This document shows positions 27,008-40,138 of a stretch of 64,000 nt of DNA, piece by piece. Made by a program: the position numbers and the translations under genes. Numbering within the stretch: position 1 is the stretch's first letter; every line of letters begins with the position of its first letter. The stretch covers positions 148,267 to 212,266 of the forward strand of contig JBGUGD010000016.1 in the NCBI GenBank assembly GCA_041697335.1, written 5' to 3'. Source of the DNA: Vampirovibrionaceae bacterium NZW_1234 (lineage in GTDB: Bacteria; Cyanobacteriota; Vampirovibrionia; Vampirovibrionales; JAGQHJ01). The notes under the pieces were generated by a model. That model searched no databases. It had not been told where the DNA came from and saw only the letters and a list, made by a program, of their open reading frames with translations.

Positions 27008-27083
27008 TGGAGCGGGCAACGCGGCTCGAACGCGCGACCCCCAGCTTGGGAAGCTAGTGCTCTACCAACTGAGCTATGCCCGC
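27008..27083 (-). tRNA. tRNA-Gly (CCC), CCA encoded
   Basis: Reverse complement GCGGGCATAGCTCAGTTGGTAGAGC...TT-CCC-AA...GTTCGAG...GCCCGCTCCA. Confidence 0.97.
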
Positions 27084-28086: not shown

Positions 28087-30723
28087 TTAGGAATCCCGAT
28101 GCGCTAAAGCGTGGAAGCCCATTTGACCTTTATCAGGATCGTGATCTTCCTTCTGCATTGCTGCCAGCTCCGCTTCCAGGGCCGACTGAGTCACCACAGG
28201 CAAGGCGGCAACTAATTTATCCAAATCCGGTTCAGCGTGCTGGCTATACTCCTCCAATAAGGACGCCATGGGAGCAAGTGTTTTGTTGATGGCCCGCTGT
28301 AAGAGCATCGCGAGGTCACGACCCACAAAGCCTTCTGCCTTTTTGGCCACGGTCTCGAATTGAATGTCTGGGCTGAAGGGATAGCCGGAACGCTTGGCGT
28401 GTTGGGCCAGAATCTGGGTTTTTTGCTCTAAGTTGGGCGCTTTAAACCGGACTTGCTTGATCTGTCGGCTCTTTAAGGCTTTATCCAAAAGTTCCGGCAT
28501 ATTGGTGGAAACAATGGTGGTAACACCTTCACGCTCGGCAAAACCATCCAGTTCAACCAGAATCTGGTTCAAGGTGCTTTCGACTTCTTGCCCACCGTCA
28601 CTGGCCCCGACACGCTGTTGCGCAACCGAGTCCACTTCGTCCAGGAAGATAATTGAAGGGCCGTTTTCATAGGCATCTCGGAAGATATCACGGACCTTTT
28701 GGGCCCCTTCGCCCAAATACATTTTGCGAAGTTCCACCGCACTCAAGGGAATAAAGTTCACCCCGACTTCATTGGCAAAAGCTCTTGCGGTAAAGGTCTT
28801 CCCAGTTCCAGGATCACCCACAAAGGACATTAATTTGGGCATATCAATTCGGATATTTTTCTTCTGACGAAGCTCTTGCCGCAATTGAGAACTTCTGGCC
28901 AGTGCTGCGAGGGTTCTCAACTCAGTAACCGCTTCCTCTTGGCCCACCACCGCATCCAGTTTCAACGTCGGATCCGGCTTGAATTTAAAGCCTTTCCCAT
29001 CCTTGCCTCCAGTTGCAGACAAGAGATCCTGGATATAAGACTGACGCTGTGAATCGAATTGGGTCACAAAGTCAGATGTAATAACAAACACGCCTTCGTC
29101 CTGGTGCCGTCCCTCAGCACCCTGGTTCAGTGCTTGCGCTTTCTTTGCGGCTTGAGAGGCAACCTTATCCATCATACTGATCATGTGATCCCGGCTGGGT
29201 GCACGGCCGGAAGATTGCATCAGGGTTTTGGCAATCATCGTTACAGCATCGTCTTCAAAGCGAACCTTATATTCTTTTTCCAGGTCTTCGCGCAGACTTT
29301 GTCCCGAGAGCCGGAAATTCATCAGAGCTTCAGACAGAGTCGGGGGTTTTAATTTGATAATAGCCGCAGAATCTTGAATTCCACCGTCTATGTTGGCAGC
29401 AAGTGCCTCCATACCACCTACCACCAGCTTAACATTAGGAAATGCTTTGGCCAGTCGACCCAATTGGTTAAATAACGGCACTTGAGATTCATCCGCCAGA
29501 ATAAAAAGCAAGGCATTTTTGCCGATGGGGGTTTTCTGCTGAATTTCACTCATGGTTTTCTTCAAGGCTTTCAATACATCAGGCTTCTCAGCCGACATAT
29601 AGGAAAAGGTGGTTCGGGTATTCACCTGTAGCCCTTCCCATTGATGGTGAAAGGCTTCATCAAAATCACTTTCAATGACAAAGCTATGGACGTTAGCCTG
29701 ACCATTTACGTCTTTGTCCATTTGCGGATTAACCGCCATTTGAGCAATCAAGCTACGTTGATCATCGACATGCCCCAATATAAACCCGGGCCGGGGCGCG
29801 CGTTCAAACCGATATATCCGGTGATAAACGGCATCGGCAGCCTCCAAATTCATAAACTCCAGGGCTGGTACCATGGACTTGGTAACCACCGCTTTTTCTG
29901 GATTTACAGGTGTTTCTTTCTTCGAAGGCTCTGCTTTGTCTAGTTTCTTGGCCTTCGGTTTAAAGGCGGGTTCCGGAACTACCACTCTGTCTCTGACATA
30001 CTTCTGAGTAATTCGCTCTGGCGCTTTCAAAAACAAGCGACCAAAATGCATTAAGACATCATCATGCGGTGTTTTGGCTTGCTTCATAGCCACTGCACCC
30101 TGGAAAAGCGCACTATAAAGATGGTCAGACTCAAGTGGAGCATCCTGCCATTGGGCGGCACGATTTAAGCTCTTGAGCAAGGCTTTACGATCCGCATTCA
30201 AGGAATTCGGGCCTTGGTAGCGACTCAATTCCGCAAGGTTAATTTTTAAGGCACTAATGAGCTTGAGAAAATACTGATCAAAAGCTGCTAACATCCGGTT
30301 ATCCAAGGCCGTCTTGGGCTCAGCCAAAGGCAATGTCTTTTTTAAGTTATCACGGAAAGCCACCAGGGCCGGACGATTATTGGTCCGATCGTAATACGTC
30401 CATTGTTGAAGTTTCTTGAGCCAGGTTGGTCGATTCTCATAGGCTAAAAACGTGCTGATGTCATGCATCAAATAGGTGCTAAAGCGACGTTGTTCAGGCC
30501 CTAACGCGTGCCATTGTTTTTTTAGTATAGGTCCTAAAGTATTGTCTGCCAGCACGGTCTGGGGTTTGCCTGCATCATGGGCAGGTTTACTCGTCCCAAC
30601 CGAAACTGTGTCTTCAACTGCGTTTTGAGGCGGCTTGATCTGTGGATTGGCCTGAAATCGAATCTGACTCGACAAATTCAAAGCAGCAACATGTGTCGAT
30701 AAAGTCCCAACCGGCATTGTCAT
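28087..30723 (-). CDS. AAA+ ATPase with an FtsH-like module, no protease domain, long N-terminal region
   Basis: Walker A GDPGTGKT, pore loop MYLG, Walker B IIFLDEVD, ESTLNQILVELDGF. Confidence 0.85.
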   Translation of the reverse strand: MTMPVGTLSTHVAALNLSSQIRFQANPQIKPPQNAVEDTVSVGTSKPAHDAGKPQTVLADNTLGPILKKQWHALGPEQRRFSTYLMHDISTFLAYENRPTWLKKLQQWTYYDRTNNRPALVAFRDNLKKTLPLAEPKTALDNRMLAAFDQYFLKLISALKINLAELSRYQGPNSLNADRKALLKSLNRAAQWQDAPLESDHLYSALFQGAVAMKQAKTPHDDVLMHFGRLFLKAPERITQKYVRDRVVVPEPAFKPKAKKLDKAEPSKKETPVNPEKAVVTKSMVPALEFMNLEAADAVYHRIYRFERAPRPGFILGHVDDQRSLIAQMAVNPQMDKDVNGQANVHSFVIESDFDEAFHHQWEGLQVNTRTTFSYMSAEKPDVLKALKKTMSEIQQKTPIGKNALLFILADESQVPLFNQLGRLAKAFPNVKLVVGGMEALAANIDGGIQDSAAIIKLKPPTLSEALMNFRLSGQSLREDLEKEYKVRFEDDAVTMIAKTLMQSSGRAPSRDHMISMMDKVASQAAKKAQALNQGAEGRHQDEGVFVITSDFVTQFDSQRQSYIQDLLSATGGKDGKGFKFKPDPTLKLDAVVGQEEAVTELRTLAALARSSQLRQELRQKKNIRIDMPKLMSFVGDPGTGKTFTARAFANEVGVNFIPLSAVELRKMYLGEGAQKVRDIFRDAYENGPSIIFLDEVDSVAQQRVGASDGGQEVESTLNQILVELDGFAEREGVTTIVSTNMPELLDKALKSRQIKQVRFKAPNLEQKTQILAQHAKRSGYPFSPDIQFETVAKKAEGFVGRDLAMLLQRAINKTLAPMASLLEEYSQHAEPDLDKLVAALPVVTQSALEAELAAMQKEDHDPDKGQMGFHALAHRDS

Positions 30724-30880
30724 TCTTGTTCACCTACTAACCCAAAATTGTAAACATCCCCAACAGAGGGGTACCAAATTCACATTGCCCTTTATATCAA
30801 AAGAGTAATCAAATTACAACTTGTTTAAGAAATATGTCGAGCAGTTGTTCTGAGTTGTCCGAAACACTCGTCCGTTATAC

Positions 30881-31789
30881 CTACGCCCCCAACTGCAAGG
30901 CTATTTGGCTGGCAGAGGATTGCAAGGCCGGAGGTACAAACAACGCTAGAACTTCAGAAGCTTTCTCTCGCTTATCGCCTTTGCAACTAATAAAGCGCTG
31001 AACCGATAAGGAAATTTGGCAGGCTGGGGCGTACCAATGTCGAGTCAATGACGTGTCGTGATTGGAAATGACCACAATAACACCTTGCTGTGACAAGGCA
31101 ATTGCCGTCTCAGCTAACTGTACTTGCTGGTCCTGGCTAAACCCTCCGGCACTGTAGCTGGTAAAATTTGCAGTGGAAGATAAAGGAACATAGGGCGGAT
31201 CACAATAAACCACATCACCGGCTCGGGCTTGGGCCATCACGCTCAAAAAATCCATGTGCTGCCACGTTACCGATACCCGCTGGACTTTGTGATAAAACGC
31301 CAACATCTCCCGCTCGGGGAAATAAGGTTTCGTATAACGGCCAAAGGGGACATTAAACCCCGCTCGACTATTATAACGGCACAACCCATTAAACCCATGG
31401 CGATTGAGGTAGACAAAAGCCATCGCACGAAAATAGCTTTCGGAACTTTCATTGAAAGCATCCCGAAGTGAGTAATAGCCTTCCGGCGTGTTGTTTTGTG
31501 GTGTAAACAACGTTTTACAATCCTGGATAAAGGCTGTTCCATGAGTGGCTAAAGTCTGGTAAAGCCCTATCAAATCTTGATTGCTGTCGTTCAATATGTA
31601 GCGGGAATAGGGTGTATTCATAAATACAGCCCCAGACCCTACAAAAGGTTCAATCAAGCGGGAAGTTTCCGGCCATTTGCCTAACGCATGCTGTAGGGCA
31701 GAAACAATCCTGAATTTATTGCCCGCCCATTTTAAAAACGGTCTCTCTAACGGTTCATCCACAGCTATCTTTGCTGGATGGAGCGCCAT
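30881..31789 (-). CDS. dam: Dam-family DNA adenine methyltransferase
   Basis: FLKWAGNK, EPFVGSG, NGLCRYN, FNVPFG, YCDPPY. Confidence 0.92.
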   Translation of the reverse strand: MALHPAKIAVDEPLERPFLKWAGNKFRIVSALQHALGKWPETSRLIEPFVGSGAVFMNTPYSRYILNDSNQDLIGLYQTLATHGTAFIQDCKTLFTPQNNTPEGYYSLRDAFNESSESYFRAMAFVYLNRHGFNGLCRYNSRAGFNVPFGRYTKPYFPEREMLAFYHKVQRVSVTWQHMDFLSVMAQARAGDVVYCDPPYVPLSSTANFTSYSAGGFSQDQQVQLAETAIALSQQGVIVVISNHDTSLTRHWYAPACQISLSVQRFISCKGDKREKASEVLALFVPPALQSSASQIALQLGA

Positions 31790-31941: not shown

Positions 31942-32271
31942 CTATTGTCGAGTGCCGAACTCTTCTTGTGCGGCTTTTTGGGCTTTTTGTGATTGTTCTT
32001 GCTCTTCCTTGTGAATCGCCTCTTGGCGAAGCTGCAGACTACGCATACGGGTATCCAGCAGTTTTTCCGCTTCATTTAACTGGCGGATCCTGGCTTCCAA
32101 CATCTTGTCGGCCTTGGTACCAGGCTCATATTCCACCTTCAAGTTCATAAAGGTACTGACTGCTTTCGCCAGATAATGCTTATGCTGCATCAAGAATTGC
32201 ATCTGAAGATCCAAATCGTACTTCATTGCAATGAGCATCATTAATCTAGGTTGACTGGATGCGAAAGGCAT
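31942..32271 (-). CDS. Hypothetical coiled-coil protein (ASSQxRL N-terminus)
   Basis: 109-aa helical ORF; GGGGGA upstream. Confidence 0.7.
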   Translation of the reverse strand: MPFASSQPRLMMLIAMKYDLDLQMQFLMQHKHYLAKAVSTFMNLKVEYEPGTKADKMLEARIRQLNEAEKLLDTRMRSLQLRQEAIHKEEQEQSQKAQKAAQEEFGTRQ

Positions 32272-32362
32272 TTATTGCGTTCCCCCAAATACCCCTTGGT
32301 TATATAAAACCCCGTTCTACCAGTTTTATGACAAATTATTAACAAATATTTAAGAGTTGGCG

Positions 32363-33754: not shown

Positions 33755-33783
33755 AAAAAACCCGCTGATTTCTCAGCGGGTTT
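33755..33783 (-). terminator. Rho-independent terminator of the 578-aa gene
   Basis: AAACCCGCTGA / TCAGCGGGTTT stem followed by a U6 tail on the minus strand. Confidence 0.8.
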
Positions 33784-33801
33784 AATTCTGTACCTGGGTA
33801 A

Positions 33802-35538
33802 TTATTTACGAACCACCATGGTACTGCTGACAGGACGCGGGGTCTGGTTGTTGCCACCACCTCCGGAAATCGTACCCTGTGGAGAGGTTTTAAGGGTTTG
33901 GACCCGATCGTTCACCGCCTGCTGGGTCTGGTTAATGACCGTTTGGGTGTTGAGCGGTTGCGTGCCTGTATTTTGCATCACAATAGGACGAGTCGTCACC
34001 TGATTTGTTGGCTGGGTTGAGACAGGATTAATGGGCCGAACACCACCGGTAACCGTGGTAGTCTGAGTAACGGTCCCACCTACACCGGTTTGACCTGTGG
34101 TCTGGGTACCCATACCTGTTGGATTAATGACAGTCGTGGTGGTTCCCACACCGGTTTGTTGTCCGGTGGTTTGGGTTCCTACGCCGGCTTGCTGACCCGT
34201 GGTTTGAGTACCAACTCCAGTTGTGGCTCCCACACCGGTCTGCTGACCCGTGGTTTGAGTACCGACTCCCGTTGTGGCTCCCACGCCGGTCTGTTGCCCG
34301 GTGGTTTGGGTTCCTACGCCGGTATTGTTACCAACGGTTGTTGTGGTTGTACCAATACCATTCTGAGTTGTCACTTGAGTACCGTTACCACCACCTTGAG
34401 TGGTTACCTGACCATTGTTGGGATCCACCTGAGTTTGCGTGTTGTTATTCTGGTTCAGATTGGCCAAAGTGGTATTGATTTGATTCAAGGTTTGTTGAAT
34501 CTGAGCCTGAAGAGCGGGATCGGTACCTTGGGTTGCTGTGGTTGTATTGTTTCCGGTCCCTTGGGTAACACCGTTACCATTGGTGTTTGTCACCGTGGTT
34601 CCTTGGGTGTTGGTAGTGGTTCCATTCCCTTGGGTAACTCCATTACCATTAGTGTTTGTCACCGTGGTTCCTTGAGTACCACCGGTACCGGCGCCATTGG
34701 TTGCTGGCTGCTGAGGCTTATCCTTCTCAGCTTTCAGCTTGGCCACTTCCTCGGTCAGTTTGGCAATGGTTTCAGACATCTGTTTTATCATTTCAGCCAA
34801 CTGATTATCGGCCGCAGGTTGATTGCCCTGACCGCCTTGGGTTGTTGCAGTGGTAGCGGTAAAGGTTGTATCACCGGTTTGGCCTACTTGATTAGCACCA
34901 CCATTCGGGGCAGCTGTGCCCGCTTGAGCATCTGTCTTGGGCTTATCTTTTTGATCTGCATCAACCTTAGCATCTTCTTTATCTTGCTTTTGTTGCTCCA
35001 AGACAGTACTAATCAGTTTTGTAAACATGGCTATGCTTGCAGTGTCATTGGCTGGAGAAGCTTGAGGTGCAACTGTTCTTTCGAACTCTTCCTGTCGAGC
35101 ATCGGCACCGAAGATATTGCTAAGCAAACTGAGACTTGCCAAATCAGGACCAACGCCAAGAGGCGAAGCACTTAAGAGAGGATTCTCTAAAGCAAGTGCA
35201 GGAAGACCAATAGCGCCGGTACCAAAAGAGGTGCCTAAAAGACCAATGTCATTCAAGCTTTGGTTAAGCAGCGGGCTCGAAAGCAAAGGAGACGCTGCGA
35301 TTGGCGCAGAAGCTGAATAGTCAAGGGCATAAATTGGAACGGCCACTACCGGGCTCTGAACCTGGGGTAAACTACCCCACATTGCTGCAGAACCATAAGC
35401 GCTGGGCCAAAATGTACCTTGAGAACCTACTGAAAAATTGGGGTTCGAATTTGACGTAAAAACACTGTTGTCAATAAATCCGGAATCCCCGTAAAACCCA
35501 AAGGGCATTGAGGATACACCACCAATACTGTAACTCAT
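33802..35538 (-). CDS. Cys-free Thr/Gly/Gln-rich repeat protein, harpin-like composition
   Basis: GVGTQTTGQQ repeats, TQGTTVTNTNGNGVTQG twice, short coiled coil; strong SD. Confidence 0.85.
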   Translation of the reverse strand: MSYSIGGVSSMPFGFYGDSGFIDNSVFTSNSNPNFSVGSQGTFWPSAYGSAAMWGSLPQVQSPVVAVPIYALDYSASAPIAASPLLSSPLLNQSLNDIGLLGTSFGTGAIGLPALALENPLLSASPLGVGPDLASLSLLSNIFGADARQEEFERTVAPQASPANDTASIAMFTKLISTVLEQQKQDKEDAKVDADQKDKPKTDAQAGTAAPNGGANQVGQTGDTTFTATTATTQGGQGNQPAADNQLAEMIKQMSETIAKLTEEVAKLKAEKDKPQQPATNGAGTGGTQGTTVTNTNGNGVTQGNGTTTNTQGTTVTNTNGNGVTQGTGNNTTTATQGTDPALQAQIQQTLNQINTTLANLNQNNNTQTQVDPNNGQVTTQGGGNGTQVTTQNGIGTTTTTVGNNTGVGTQTTGQQTGVGATTGVGTQTTGQQTGVGATTGVGTQTTGQQAGVGTQTTGQQTGVGTTTTVINPTGMGTQTTGQTGVGGTVTQTTTVTGGVRPINPVSTQPTNQVTTRPIVMQNTGTQPLNTQTVINQTQQAVNDRVQTLKTSPQGTISGGGGNNQTPRPVSSTMVVRK

Positions 35539-35541
35539 GGA

Positions 35542-35670
35542 CGAAAACTCCTAACTCAATAACTCCGAAACTCCCTTGTTTTCAGGGAGTGAGACAACAC
35601 ATCCTATTTATTCTTATATGCATAAAAACAATCATTAAGATTTTATTGATGCATTCTAACAATTTGTAAC
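35542..35670 (-). promoter_or_regulatory. Shared leader/promoter module, copy 1
   Basis: Plus strand CGAAAACTCCTAACTC 35542-35557, ATAAAAACAA 35622-35631, TTTGTAAC 35663-35670. Confidence 0.65.
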
Positions 35671-35895
35671 AAGCAAGATACTAAAAGGCGTCATCGTCCA
35701 AATAGCAACATCGAGCTGCCAATAGGCGTCAAGAGAGATAATAGACTTCCAAAATTGCTGATTAACATCTATTCCAATTTCTGAATAATCATGCCCTGAA
35801 TCACAGGGACATCGGCACTTCACTTCTTAAAGACTACGGAATGATCCCAAGTCATCCAACACCCACATTTTTAGAGTGATAAAGACCCCTTGCAT

Positions 35896-35926
35896 AAAGA
35901 AAAAGCCCGCCCACACGTGGACGGGT
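35896..35926 (-). terminator. Rho-independent terminator about 170 nt after the 604-aa gene
   Basis: Minus strand ACCCGTCCAC-GT-GTGGGCGGGC-TTTTTCTTT. Confidence 0.75.
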
Positions 35927-36093
35927 TAAACGTTAGATAGAGAGAGTTAGAGATGAAGCGATAGGGATAGTGAGTTGAAACATTGGATACATTTTCTAAA
36001 GTGTTCTCGCCAGTTCAACACCTATAGGCATCGCGGTTATTAAGCGAGAGATACACTTCGCAGGATACATGAATTTATAACGACGATATCGTT

Positions 36094-37908
36094 TTACTGA
36101 TCAAAGGCCGTTTGTTTGATTTCATCAAAGCGACTGCGAATATTCTTCTGCAAATCGTCAATGAAGGAACCCACATTCGCACCGAGGGTCGATGCCGGAG
36201 ATGGCGTTGTAAAACCAGTCGGTTCAGAAGATTGGGCCTTAGGCTCAGTCGTCTTTTCCTCTTGTTTTGTTTCGACCTTGGGCGCAGGCTCTGTAACTTT
36301 AGCAATAACTTCTGCAACAGCTACTGGAGCACTTGCGACCTGACTTTTAACGTTATTTTCATTGGATGCCTCGGCCGTATTTTTATTGGTATTCTCAATA
36401 ACCGGGGCACTTACGGACTGATTTTTATTATCGTTTTTACTGGATGCCTCGGCGGTGTTTTTGTTTGTACTATGAGCCACCGGGACATTGGTATTGCGAT
36501 TATCGTTTTCGGATACCACTGTGGTTTCCGTATTCGTGGTAACCACAGGAATATTCGTATTCTCATTCTGACTAAACGTTGTGGCTTTTGCCTCAGACTG
36601 AGTCTGGTTCTTATTGGCATTTTCATTTTTGCTGACAACGTTGGTTTCAGTCTTCGATTCGTTGACGACAACCGGCTTATTAATGTCTTTGTTATCATTT
36701 AAATTGACGTCCTTGTTGTCAACCACGACAACAGGTTTATTATCGTTCTGAACCGTGTTAACCTGAACCGGCTTATTATCATTATTATTGGTTGCCACAA
36801 ACGAGGATTTATCTTCGTTATTGTTATTCACAACAACCGTGGGCTTATTGTCGTTAGTCACCTTAATTTCAGGTTTCACTTCGATTTTCGGATCCACGTT
36901 TACAGTCACCGTCACGTTCGGGGTATTGGTAACCGTGTTTGTATTCGTGTCCTTATCCGTATTCACAAAGCTGGTTTGAGCACCAGGGCTCACAGCCACA
37001 GCCTTGGGGACTCCGGCAACTGGCGAGGTGAAGTAGTTATTAATGACATTATTATTTCCAGTAATCACCTGAACAATACTATCAGCTATATTTTCCAATT
37101 TGGTGGTTTCCACCGTATTGTTGTTGCCGTTCACCGTGCTGGAGACAACAGTAGCAGCACTACTACCCCATCCCGTGGATGCGACAGCACTGGGCTGTTG
37201 TGTCGTCACAACCGTGGAACTACCGGGCCGAGGTTGAATTGCAATGGTAGAACTCGACTTTGAGGGTAAGATGCGTGATACTGGGGAAGGACGTGAAGAA
37301 ATACCGTTACCGGGGCCTACACGACCATCACCAGGGCGACGTCGACTGGAACGATCATCGCCAAAATCAAATAAACTACCTAAGCCATCGCCTCCGGCCA
37401 TCATCAGCATCATCATAATGAATGATAATAAACTGTTCTGCTGCCCTTGCGGTTGCGAAAGGGATGCAAAAGTGGGCGCATAATTTACATTATACTGAAC
37501 CGGGGGAACACCGCTAAAGGAGGGTGCTTTTGGCTGTTGAGGAAATTGATAAAAATTATTGTATTGCGGAAAAGTATACGTGGGTTGCGAGTAGTTGTAC
37601 TGGGGAAACGTATACGTGGGTTGCGAATAATTGTATTGGGGATAGCTATATTGCGGAGAATAGCTATACTGGGGAGAATAGTTATAAGTCGTTTGTGGCG
37701 CATACGTATTATTAGGCGCATAGGTATAACTTTGCGCATACGTTGGGGAATAAGAATAGGCATTTGCGGAATACGCGTTCGCTTCATTTCCTCCGGTGCT
37801 CGGCCAAGCCATCTGCGGCGAACTAGGGTACGCTTGTTGCTGTACCGGTGCCGACTGCTGGCCACCTAGAAATGGCTGCTGTTGAGCAAAGCTGTAATTC
37901 GTCACCAT
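36094..37908 (-). CDS. Cys-free low-complexity protein: Tyr/Gln/Pro N-terminus, Met-rich helix, Asn/Val/Thr repeats
   Basis: QPTYTFPQYN twice, LLSFIMMMLMMAGG, NKNTAEAS twice; strong SD. Confidence 0.85.
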   Translation of the reverse strand: MVTNYSFAQQQPFLGGQQSAPVQQQAYPSSPQMAWPSTGGNEANAYSANAYSYSPTYAQSYTYAPNNTYAPQTTYNYSPQYSYSPQYSYPQYNYSQPTYTFPQYNYSQPTYTFPQYNNFYQFPQQPKAPSFSGVPPVQYNVNYAPTFASLSQPQGQQNSLLSFIMMMLMMAGGDGLGSLFDFGDDRSSRRRPGDGRVGPGNGISSRPSPVSRILPSKSSSTIAIQPRPGSSTVVTTQQPSAVASTGWGSSAATVVSSTVNGNNNTVETTKLENIADSIVQVITGNNNVINNYFTSPVAGVPKAVAVSPGAQTSFVNTDKDTNTNTVTNTPNVTVTVNVDPKIEVKPEIKVTNDNKPTVVVNNNNEDKSSFVATNNNDNKPVQVNTVQNDNKPVVVVDNKDVNLNDNKDINKPVVVNESKTETNVVSKNENANKNQTQSEAKATTFSQNENTNIPVVTTNTETTVVSENDNRNTNVPVAHSTNKNTAEASSKNDNKNQSVSAPVIENTNKNTAEASNENNVKSQVASAPVAVAEVIAKVTEPAPKVETKQEEKTTEPKAQSSEPTGFTTPSPASTLGANVGSFIDDLQKNIRSRFDEIKQTAFDQ

Positions 37909-37912
37909 ATCA

Positions 37913-38013
37913 CGAAACTCCTAACTCTACGATGAAAAGAGAACATTAACTTCTTGTATTTATATAAAAACAATTATTTAATAATTGCTGATACTATGTT
38001 TCTATTTGTAAAC
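37913..38013 (-). promoter_or_regulatory. Shared leader/promoter module, copy 2
   Basis: CGAAACTCCTAACTCTACG 37913-37931, ATAAAAACAA 37964-37973, TTTGTAAAC 38005-38013. Confidence 0.65.
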
Positions 38014-38100
38014 GAAAATATTTAGATTTTATTAATTCGGATAAGATAACGCTAATAGAGGCATACTGCTTTTTTAGCGTTTAATAAAAATGACAAAAAT

Positions 38101-38136
38101 AAAACAGATCTCTTGCATTGCGAAGAGATCTGTTTT
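38101..38136 (-). terminator. Terminator of the 367-aa gene
   Basis: AAAACAGATCTCTT / AAGAGATCTGTTTT, 14-bp inverted repeat. Confidence 0.75.
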
Positions 38137-38171
38137 GAGTTTTATCCGCTTACAATCGGTGCTAACCTTGT

Positions 38172-39275
38172 CTAAGCCTCAAACTGCCGAAGCTTTTCAT
38201 TGGTAGCACTTGTGAAGAGATCGTCATTGATAGTGTAATAATCGTTGACGGTTAGACCTGGAGCAAGGGCCCCTTCACCGGTTCGTTGATTGACTTTGGC
38301 CGGATCAATATCCTTAAAGACGATCGATCCGAGCAACCCTTCAGGCGGTTTATCAGGATCATAGCCTTCGGGAGCTTTAACACTGACATCAAAGTAATGT
38401 TTTCCGGCCGCAATCGTTCGCTTGATATCGCCATCAAAGACATCGGTATCATAGACCATGGTTGCGGTTTCTTTATCCCATTTAACGGAATCATTACCAT
38501 CGGTATACACTTCATCATCCTGAAGTTCACGAACCACCTGGCCATCGTTATCAACCAAGACAGGTTTTTCGTCTATCCATTTGATGCGTGAGTTACCGAT
38601 ACGAACACCAATTTCTGCATAAACAGTTGGGTCTGGCTTTCCAGCACCACCATCGGCCCATTTGCCGAGCTTACCGTTAATCAGAATGTCATCGGTATCA
38701 ACAATACTGGTGGTTTTTCCGGCCGGTGGGTGAATATCCACTGTTTTACCGTTTGCCAGGACAAAGTGGGGATCACCCCATACTTTACCACCTTTACCCT
38801 TATCGATGGGCGGTTTTGGTTTCGGCGGCGGTGGTGGCGGCGGTGGTGGCGGCGGCGGTGGCGGGGGGGGTGGGGTCGGAACCGGCGGTTGAGGAACCGG
38901 CGGTGGACAAGGACAATAATCGTCATACTTAGAGTTATTGGCCTTTTTACCTTTAAAAATTTGCATTAATAACATCATCAACATAAACCCTTGGATACCA
39001 TCACCACCAAAACCGAAGTCTTGGCTGGATTCCACAGAAGGGTTGACGCCACCGATGGAACTGCCAAAGGCAGCACCACCAATAGCACCTAAGGGCTGAT
39101 TGATAAACGTCACAGGGCTGCCACCCAATCCAAAGGTCGAACCAATGATGGGCCCAGATGAGATTAAATTATCCAATCCACCGTTCCACGAAGGTCTTGG
39201 CTGGGGCGCAAATGACATTGCGGATTGCAAGCCCGACTGCAAGCCAGATTGTAAAAATGGAAACAGACTATTCAT
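38172..39275 (-). CDS. Protein with Met-rich helix, polyproline tract and C-terminal WGDPH (VWD-like) domain
   Basis: GFMLMMLLMQIF, CPCPPP followed by a long Pro run, GKVWGDPHF...GLLG. Confidence 0.85.
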   Translation of the reverse strand: MNSLFPFLQSGLQSGLQSAMSFAPQPRPSWNGGLDNLISSGPIIGSTFGLGGSPVTFINQPLGAIGGAAFGSSIGGVNPSVESSQDFGFGGDGIQGFMLMMLLMQIFKGKKANNSKYDDYCPCPPPVPQPPVPTPPPPPPPPPPPPPPPPPKPKPPIDKGKGGKVWGDPHFVLANGKTVDIHPPAGKTTSIVDTDDILINGKLGKWADGGAGKPDPTVYAEIGVRIGNSRIKWIDEKPVLVDNDGQVVRELQDDEVYTDGNDSVKWDKETATMVYDTDVFDGDIKRTIAAGKHYFDVSVKAPEGYDPDKPPEGLLGSIVFKDIDPAKVNQRTGEGALAPGLTVNDYYTINDDLFTSATNEKLRQFEA

Positions 39276-39279
39276 AGGG

Positions 39280-39387
39280 CGAAACTCCTAACTCTACGGG
39301 AAAACACATCACGAAATGAGAGACTTACATACAAATATAAAAACAACCATTTGAACGCGCTGTGACAGATTGTTTCCAAATGTTAAT
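39280..39387 (-). promoter_or_regulatory. Shared leader/promoter module, copy 3
   Basis: CGAAACTCCTAACTCTACG 39280-39298, ATAAAAACAA 39337-39346, AATGTTAAT 39379-39387. Confidence 0.65.
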
Positions 39388-39505
39388 AATTTCTTAAATT
39401 CTCGCCAGAAGTATGTCTGCTCTGTCGGGGGCGACTCATTTGCCTTTCAACACCTATCAGCCTTGAACCAAAAGGAATTGACACTCTTCTCCCAGATCTG
39501 TAGGG

Positions 39506-39913: not shown

Positions 39914-40009
39914 ATCTCCTCCGTTTCGTCATCAACTCGTCTTCGTTTATTCTAACAGGAGCGAACAATAAAAATGGCCTACAGACCTGCTGTAAGCCGA
40001 ATCAAAAAT

Positions 40010-40082
<73 letters not shown>

Positions 40083-40138
40083 CTATCAAAGTGTTCCCAT
40101 TATAGTGGGAGATGATGAGGACGTCAAAACGTAGCCCA

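Follow-up and report, generated by a model that had tools for sequence, protein, structure and literature searches.

A promoter-like motif shared by three low-complexity genes of a Vampirovibrionales genome, with candidate sigma factors and a probable link to a second type III export set

We analysed three co-oriented genes, here called A, B and C, on the minus strand of a 64,000-nucleotide (nt) stretch of DNA (the window, G000:C10:148267-212266), where G000 is the source genome (completeness 94.75%), that of a non-photosynthetic cyanobacterial relative, and its relatives are labelled G004, G005 and so on. The order was inferred to be Vampirovibrionales because the nearest named homologues of a conserved sigma-factor gene belong to Vampirovibrio and Vampirovibrionales, in agreement with the Melainabacterium named in a preliminary description of this DNA, which had read the genes as a cluster of harpin-like orphans encoding candidate secreted effectors. 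Comparisons were made across 61 genomes of the class (families f1-f9), namely G000, 48 others of the order Vampirovibrionales and 12 from outside it. Our analysis indicates that A-C are likely a small sample of a lineage-wide promoter class, a sigma-factor pair and a second, flagellum-derived exporter.

Gene A (33802..35538, minus strand) encodes a Cys-free protein of 578 amino acids (aa) with an isoelectric point (pI) of 4.66, disordered, rich in Thr, Gly and Gln, internally repetitive and predicted to contain a short coiled coil. Gene B (36094..37908, minus strand; 604 aa, pI 5.21) is also Cys-free and leads from Tyr/Ser/Gln repeats through a Met/Leu helix into an Asn/Val/Thr-rich stalk, and gene C (38172..39275, minus strand; 367 aa, pI 4.75) encodes a disordered N-terminus, a Met/Leu helix (aa 94-107), a poly-Pro stalk and a C-terminal domain modelled as a VWD fold. 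All three products are acidic, with 0, 0 and 2 Cys and 13.8%, 4.3% and 12.0% Gly, respectively, so that two of the three are Cys-free, as first described. Met/Leu segments were confirmed from aa 168 of A (aa 168-180 = nt 34999-35037), aa 158 of B (aa 158-173 = nt 37390-37437, hydrophobic) and aa 94 of C, but the amphipathicity ascribed to all of them is clear only in A (helix moment/mean hydrophobicity 0.58/0.22), the helices of B (0.34/0.59) and C (0.45/0.53) being more evenly hydrophobic. No Sec-like N-terminus was found in A, B or C by a heuristic, each gene is followed by its own terminator-like hairpin (33758..33783, 35906..35925 and 38101..38136 for A, B and C, minus strand) and the upstream regions are AT-rich (GC 0.33, 0.24 and 0.37 versus 0.50 for the window), all of which upholds the preliminary description. 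Codon adaptation of the three genes (0.68-0.73) falls within the 5-95% range of the genome (0.66-0.80). No Pfam or NCBIfam family was matched by A, B or C. Using low-complexity, length-limited queries, A and B had no homologue in five of five relatives, with no match for B among 7999 scored candidates; homologues of C were detected in 42 of the 61 genomes, part of these matches being due to its Pro-rich region, and C is therefore not an orphan.

The preliminary description missed the GDPH domain of C, an extended ribosome-binding sequence and a promoter-like motif upstream of each gene. Alignment of the three leaders revealed a common core, TTGTTTTTAT, together with an identical 13-nt ribosome-binding stretch (A, 35545..35557; B, 37915-37927; C, 39282-39294; minus strand), of which the genome holds five exact copies, each before a motif-bearing low-complexity gene. 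The motif lies on the minus strand at 35615..35651 for A (score 35.4; -10-like box 35622-35629; predicted start near 35615), where the first box is one base off the strict pattern, at 37957..37993 for B (score 35.7; 17-nt spacer; -10-like box 37964-37971) and at 39330..39367 for C (strict pattern with an 18-nt spacer; -10-like box 39337-39344), the score of 15.2 for C being just below the matrix threshold of 16 bits. Genome-wide, the 10-mer core occurred 134 times against 24 expected, with its one-base variants mostly near expectation. The first box, TRDCA, stood 5' of the core at a spacer of 17 nt at 72 sites and 18 nt at 28 sites, with three or fewer at spacers of 10-16 nt; minor box-to-box peaks of 12 and 8 sites appeared at 25 and 20 nt, respectively. 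A pyrimidine-purine step was found 5 nt past the core in 233 of 434 cases and, read as the start, positions the core from -14 to -7, in line with sigma-28, in whose promoter consensus the -10-like box begins with G at about -14.

About 175 sites (175 at 16 bits or more) were identified in G000 with the matrix, and a matrix scan returned 187 sites against 0, 1 and 1 in shuffled sequences, a comparison that is partly circular because the matrix was trained on G000, although the spacer and cross-genome tests are free of this circularity. Despite long open reading frames (ORFs) making up 74% of the genome, only 1 of the 175 sites fell inside one, and the next long ORF lay in the same orientation at 110 sites and in the opposite orientation at 19. 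The strict pattern matched 100 times in G000 and 6-47 times in each of the other 48 Vampirovibrionales genomes, where control patterns that were reversed or had a wrong spacer gave 0-7 and 0-9 matches, respectively. Outside the order it was found 41 and 54 times in f4 (controls 9-17) and 22 and 10 times in f7 (controls 5-7), with no excess over controls in f5, f6, f8 and f9. At the syntenic locus by truB in G004, different low-complexity genes, GDPH proteins among them, carry the same motif upstream, the promoter having been retained and the cargo replaced wholesale between genera. We consider it very probable that the motif is a promoter, and the co-regulation once proposed for A-C is strongly supported and much wider than claimed.

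The motif comprises two subclasses whose boxes are coupled. Class a, which includes A, B and C, has a TRDCA-type first box and A or G, never T, after the core (0 with the class b core), and class b takes the form GCAAT-15-GTTTTTATT (33 sites versus 3 with another last base). Class b was counted 24 times in G004, 49 times in G022 and 4 times in G005, with 0-2 occurrences in the 12 non-Vampirovibrionales genomes and 0-1 per genome where it was searched for in f6, f8 and f9. The housekeeping sigma was rejected as reader of the motif, the core having no A at -11 and a misfitting spacing, as was sigma-54, there being no conserved -12 box; group 2 sigmas, also considered, stay conceivable readers. 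A scan for sigma-70 promoters was uninformative (9 sites versus 11.4 expected). Separately, words like TTGTTACA or GTAACA occur about 35-55 nt before the predicted start with a periodicity of about 10 base pairs and resemble a site of the OmpR family, of the HLR1-like kind bound by RpaB; RpaA/RpaB are retained by Melainabacteria.

An ORF of at least 60 aa was present downstream at 160 of 176 sites, and the proteins encoded there, hereafter the regulon, differ in composition from the remainder of the mechanically called ORF set, to which the Sec-like, type I repeat and Tat heuristics were also applied. Of the downstream ORFs of at least 150 aa, 62 of 104 were Cys-free (362 of 2553 others), and the median N-terminal content of Ser, Asn, Pro, Gly, Gln and Thr was 0.50 in the regulon versus 0.35 in other proteins. 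A Sec-like N-terminus was detected in 0 of 94 regulon proteins compared with 513 of 2553 others, with type I repeats in one of the 94 and a Tat motif in none. A Pfam scan of 78 of the 160 regulon proteins, picked by locus convenience, gave no family for 67, the rest being three C39 peptidases, two EF-hand proteins, two collagen proteins and one each with pentapeptide, DUF4214, SprA-related and M16 matches. A strict Met-helix rule gave 10 of 133 versus 88 of 2553 (p=0.03), a weak result because membrane proteins pass the rule, and the feature was therefore redefined, post hoc and with membrane proteins left out, as a Met/Leu hydrophobic island in polar surroundings, which was found in 11 of 83 non-membrane regulon proteins versus 18 of 1960 others. 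B and C are among these 11, the amphipathic helix of A being uncounted. The Met/Leu helix is a real recurring feature of the regulon, in a minority of its members. An array of about ten paralogous regulon genes (G000 C9:87249-100569) shares a common N-terminal 100 aa and includes collagen and DUF4214 members.

A search of the genome for export genes, as the preliminary description had advised, recovered a full flagellum and a second type III set, with no match in G000 to VirB4 of the type IV secretion system (T4SS). Two copies each of FlhA, FlhB, FliP, FliQ, FliR, FliI, FliF, FlgB, FlgC and FlgF/G are encoded. Set 1 is the one associated with FliG, FlgH and the flagellins, and the score of its FlhA against the flagellar model is above the cut-off (862.9 > 772.1). 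Set 2 (system 2), located on C32, C8, C29 and C30, has a complete export gate and ATPase (FlhA2, FlhB2, FliP/Q/R2, FliI2 and FliH2), along with FliE, FliO, rod genes and a lytic transglycosylase. FlhA2 falls under both the FlhA and the SctV cut-offs (SctV model TIGR01399, 585.9 < 692.25), FliP2 passes the models of both fliP and SctR and shares the short length of SctR, and the C-ring protein of set 2 scores best to SctQ. The gene at the fliG position of set 2 matched no NCBIfam family, with weak FliG_M/N leads only, FliG_C and FlgH being single-copy in G000 (the flagellar copy). FlhA-family genes were found in 59 of the 61 genomes and flagellin in 53; flagellin was unmatched in six of six sampled f7-f9 genomes, all with FlhA2, and in the flagellin-less genomes tested FlgH (0/4) and FliG_C (0/2) were also unmatched.

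In a quick FlhA tree (29 of 30 rows, L064 being dropped, with few outgroups and 3 SctV rows), FlhA2 formed a clade of 13 rows with a support of 100, apart from the flagellar FlhA of Vampirovibrionia (98) and from SctV (100); a possible sister relation of FlhA2 to SctV had a support of 64, and the clade divides into f1-f4 with f7 and f6 with f8 and f9. No secretin could be tied to set 2, the two secretins of G000 sitting, by gene context, in Tad and pilus/type II loci. Needle, translocon and class I chaperone families were not found by Pfam among the 78 regulon and 15 locus proteins scanned, and a CesT search was blank, as were its controls. The Tad locus with its secretin (G000 C2:140972-150242) is adjoined by a regulon gene; a Tad system and an atypical type III system are a pairing also reported in predation by Myxococcus. 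Stand-alone proteins of about 500 aa resembling the FlhA cytoplasmic domain were also observed in f4 and f7 (G052:C6:10760-11788, G058:C15:12305-13324 and G049:C7:59407-60495).

Directly 3' of flhB2 lies a gene for a 242-aa sigma factor with one close paralogue (E 2e-56). Its similarity to the canonical flagellar FliA, also encoded in G000, is weak (E 7.6e-11), it passes the sigma-70 superfamily model only (best subfamily FliA/WhiG, 74.8 bits, below the cut-off of 189.6) and its region 2.4 is altered. In 14 of 14 loci, all in f1 and f3, the gene directly after flhB2 encodes a sigma, and 59 of the 61 genomes have a member of the family, the two exceptions being those without FlhA. Its orthologues are close (54-82%) in f1-f4 and f7, with distant copies only (30-39%) in f6, f8 and f9, and the families with the close sigma are those with the motif (weak in f7) and with the hairpin family described below. 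In G000 and G004, the second sigma paralogue has a class b site about 300 nt ahead of it, and a strong site lies directly after fliI2, before the gene that follows it; the three flagellin genes and the other scored flagellar operons are without the motif (scores <0). The presence of two paralogues and two promoter classes offers the best internal argument for the sigma assignment, and the flhB2-linked sigma family is, in our estimation, the probable reader of the motif.

The C-terminal domain of protein C (38175..38810, minus strand) was modelled from an 11-sequence alignment (pLDDT 78.8), and structure comparison gave a best VWD match of Z 14.4 (162 residues aligned at rmsd 3.1); each of the 19 rows that reached a Z of 9 was VWD-type or related, and the next row had a Z of 3.8. 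Foldseek also points to VWD (E 1.3e-5), and Pfam VWD matches were weak in 9 of the 11 aligned members and absent in C itself. By this model, C ends in a VWD fold. A GDPH motif (aa 167-170 = nt 38766-38777, minus strand) coincides in register with the site at which FCGBP and RGMB are cut between Asp and Pro, the alignments to FCGBP (8qci_B) and the RGMB chains beginning at model residue 14, the Pro of GDPH. This motif is invariant in 11 of 11 aligned domains and present in 140 of the top 150 representatives; a profile of the domain matched 1871 cluster representatives. Homologues of C share a common plan of disordered N-terminus, Met/Leu helix, Pro-rich or repeat stalk and GDPH-led domain, the helix being detected in 35 of 126 full-length representatives. 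C-type domains were not matched with this query in either of two f7 genomes, which are without flagella. PF07481 (MIIA/DUF1521) was unmatched by C or by the 11 aligned domains and appeared as an atlas lead only (score 0.81). Calcium-induced GDPH cleavage is described in type III-linked MIIA proteins (PMC6506597), and in ITIH3 the cleavage yields a reactive Asp-anhydride that ties the protein to chondroitin sulfate (PMC8267560). Autocatalytic Asp-Pro cleavage of C is predicted by its likeness to FCGBP and MIIA, and cross-linking by its domain is speculative. Two further proteins have tandem GDPH domains (G000 C14:20539-23436 and C23:2064-4454), the C14 gene with a class b-like site. Four regulon paralogues (G000 C9:140335-143547, C7:83464-84948 and C29:119516-120697; L030, L033) share the N-terminal plan of C with another C-terminal domain, which aligns weakly from end to end (E 0.13) with the FrpC self-processing module, Ser/Thr replacing Asp.

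Beyond truB, a fourth regulon member (31942..32333, minus strand; gene 31942-32271, motif 32297-32333, score 21.1) encodes a 109-aa protein of two helices with an invariant Pro at the turn. This hairpin family was detected in 52 of the 61 genomes, in f1-f4 and f7, with 5 matches in G000 and up to 12 in f4. The protein had no weighty Pfam or PDB sequence match and no Foldseek match at E<=0.001 (top row an IpaB coiled coil, E 0.1); it is a candidate filament, tip or translocator subunit. In G052, a copy of the gene lies about 5 kb from fliE2-fliF2-flhA2. The neighbours of A-C are truB on one side and, on the other, a small exported-protein gene near tRNA-Thr. Further out, the minus-strand stretch 28087-31789 of the window encodes an AAA+ ATPase of 878 aa, whose long N-terminus is specific to the lineage, and a Dam-like methylase that is syntenic in G004; tRNA-Gly and tRNA-Thr flank the wider region (27008-27083 and 40009-40083). 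Datasets sharing window DNA were microbial-mat and hot-spring metagenomes (4 of 13 rows with at least half of the words), with no RNA dataset listed among them, and four DNA runs compared with the locus gave fragmentary contigs with 0 substitutions and one 3-base insertion. In alignment A2, row L007 was mis-trimmed.

On balance, we lean towards a mechanism in which A-C would be transcribed by a FliA-derived sigma and be late substrates of a second, non-flagellar type III exporter, a prey- or host-contact structure thereby being built or armed; its steps on secretion and sigma assignment are inferred from sequence. System 2 would be built first, and the flhB2-linked sigma would then turn on the late genes, as FliA does for flagellins. 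The disordered, signal-less products would be threaded through the system-2 export gate, and we regard it as reasonably probable that they exit by this route with the disordered N-terminus as type III signal. The non-Sec export first proposed for A-C is plausible, and a suitable machine is present. Outside the cell, the short hydrophobic helix could join chains or stick to membranes, the repeat or poly-Pro region could act as a spacer and the domain of C could cut itself at Asp-Pro, its N-terminal part being released or covalently anchored, such that the proteins would together serve as an adhesive pad or as an aid to translocation, in the way of the pad and spikes of Vampirovibrio; this joint outside role is put forward tentatively. 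It is also conceivable, if short of probable, that Vampirovibrionia hold a third, independently evolved type III branch that is rod-bearing, motorless and secretin-less, has its own FliA-derived sigma pair and more than 100 substrates, and builds the Vampirovibrio pad and spike in place of a plasmid-type T4SS, the 'decaying flagellar genes' of flagellin-less gut Melainabacteria then being a working secretion system.

Several observations weigh against export of A-C through system 2 under this sigma. With no outer-membrane ring found, system 2 offers no evident passage beyond the periplasm. The structural operons of system 2 are without the motif, as expected of a late sigma and equally expected if the two are unrelated, and in f6, f8 and f9 FlhA2 is present together with a distant sigma, but neither class of the motif exceeds the controls. 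In G005 and G022, no class b site was seen ahead of the second sigma. Co-distribution is no independent evidence, since it tracks FlhA2 and probably the species tree, and, as fliA is commonly found downstream of flhB/flhA in flagellar clusters, the adjacency of flhB2 and sigma could be inherited. In addition, 72 of the 83 regulon proteins have no Met/Leu island, the background counts are noisier because some wrong-strand ORFs are included in the mechanical set, and the GDPH anhydride of FCGBP is hydrolysed with no cross-link (PMC8267560).

The likeliest alternative is a life-stage programme of dispersal, resting or stress under the same sigmas, in which A-C would stay unexported in the cytoplasm or envelope and the sigma would lie by flhB2 through inheritance. 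The motif-less system-2 operons, the missing outer-membrane exit and the families that have system 2 without the motif all favour this explanation, and the lack of type I repeats and Tat motifs, which gives no hint of another export route, suits cytoplasmic residence just as well. It is at odds with the extracellular-type domains of the cargo (VWD/GDPH, collagen, EF-hands and DUF4214), which occur where 0 of 94 proteins are Sec-like, with the flhB2-sigma adjacency in 14 of 14 loci and with the motif site after fliI2, and we hold it to be rather improbable. Less probable again is delivery by system 2 to the periplasm or surface only, for a self-made matrix (holdfast, sheath or biofilm) with no attack role. 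The absence of a secretin or L-ring from system 2, the mucin-like VWD fold, the collagen and Pro-rich stalks and the microbial-mat and hot-spring origin of the metagenomes matching the window would suit such a matrix, but the regulon is largest in the order with a known epibiotic predator, three C39 peptidases are among the 78 scanned proteins and the cargo of the syntenic locus is entirely different from one genus to another, as with interaction proteins.

Export via the true flagellum under flagellar FliA is unlikely, even though G000 has the genes for a complete flagellum and for a canonical FliA, the -10-like box opens with G near -14 in the manner of sigma-28 and C-type domains went unmatched in the two f7 genomes. 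The flagellin genes and scored flagellar operons are without the motif and a separate apparatus stands beside the candidate sigma, making the true flagellum the less likely route; moreover, the hairpin family and a close sigma persist in f7 genomes with no match to flagellin, FlgH or FliG_C. That A-C are true harpins, or horizontally acquired relatives of them, is highly improbable: by the harpin criteria of PMC6945534 (Gly-rich, Cys-free and acidic) all are acidic and A is also Gly-rich and Cys-free, and the short Leu/Met-rich helix recalls the helical stretches of HpaXpm described there, but no harpin was matched in Pfam (E<=1) or NCBIfam (E<=0.1) in searches that had no separate HrpN model, PF04877 had no match in G000, B is Gly-poor (4.3%), C has two Cys and a VWD domain and FlhA2 is under the SctV cut-off.

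If system-2 export of A-C is correct, algae-eating Vampirovibrio and its kin have an overlooked route of prey or host contact. A T4SS has been proposed for the pad and spikes of V. chlorellavorus, and hence for the attachment to and draining of algae, in a paper whose main text is without 'type III' (PMC4451040), compared with no VirB4 match in G000 and FlhA-family genes in 59 of 61 genomes here. Table S3 of the same paper enters both gene sets as flagellar in this species with its single polar flagellum, pad and spikes. The partial sets of gut Melainabacteria, from which trees were built on a conserved set in the same order as system 2, had their missing filament and ring genes attributed to genome reduction (PMC3787301), and comparable gene sets were treated as partial flagella (PMC5877343); in G000 both sets are complete side by side. 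A recent preprint reports that about 75% of Gastranaerophilales keep flhB, fliI and flgG, with a 'postulated' secretion role (bioRxiv 10.64898/2026.04.24.720558), and partially anticipates our reading of system 2, and the structure in 10.1101/2021.09.03.458937 is a different one. We found no published account of the second exporter, sigma or promoter in Vampirovibrionia in a search outside which most subscription papers lie. The motif provides a ready list of candidate substrates for any Vampirovibrionales genome, and a rod-bearing, motorless exporter outside the SctV clade, occurring in the lineage that is sister to oxygenic cyanobacteria, is relevant to the question of how flagella give rise to injectisome-like systems.

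Compared with known systems, A-C resemble the harpins HrpN, HrpZ1, HrpW1 and Hpa1 in being acidic, largely disordered and Cys-poor, without a Sec signal and with a short Leu/Met-rich helix. Harpins are co-regulated by a dedicated alternative sigma, HrpL, which the proposed regulation of A-C parallels, and the plan of C recalls the helix, linker and folded domain of HrpW. They differ in belonging to no sequence family, in the low Gly of B, in the Cys and VWD domain of C and in a linked machine that is no Hrp injectisome; what they have in common is no more than a disordered, acidic chain that includes a short helix rich in Leu and Met. Protein C resembles the GDPH VWD proteins FCGBP, MUC5AC and RGMB, sharing their fold and GDPH at the processed position, and it shares GDPH with the MIIA/DUF1521 domains of type III-secreted NopE1 and VIC_001052, themselves GDPH-cleaving type III substrates, although C has no DUF1521 match. 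The domain of C differs in having no Cys, and its fragments would therefore be held by no disulfide.

System 2 and its linked sigma resemble the flagellum and sigma-28 in component families, gene order, the position of sigma downstream of flhB and promoter register. They depart from the flagellum in coexisting with a complete one and in persisting without flagellin, L-ring or FliG_C, and from a sigma-28 regulon in having about 175 sites, mostly before family-less genes, and a sigma that scores 74.8 against 189.6 with an altered region 2.4. Unlike an injectisome, system 2 has FlhA2 in its own clade, keeps flagellar FliF, FliE, FliO, rod genes and lytic transglycosylase and has no linked secretin, and needle, translocon and CesT families were not found in the scans (the CesT controls being blank). 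It is nevertheless injectisome-like in its full export gate, ATPase and stator, in the likeness of FliP2 to SctR and of the C-ring protein to SctQ and in having no torque-domain FliG, and a secretin-less form of type III system is used in predation by Myxococcales.

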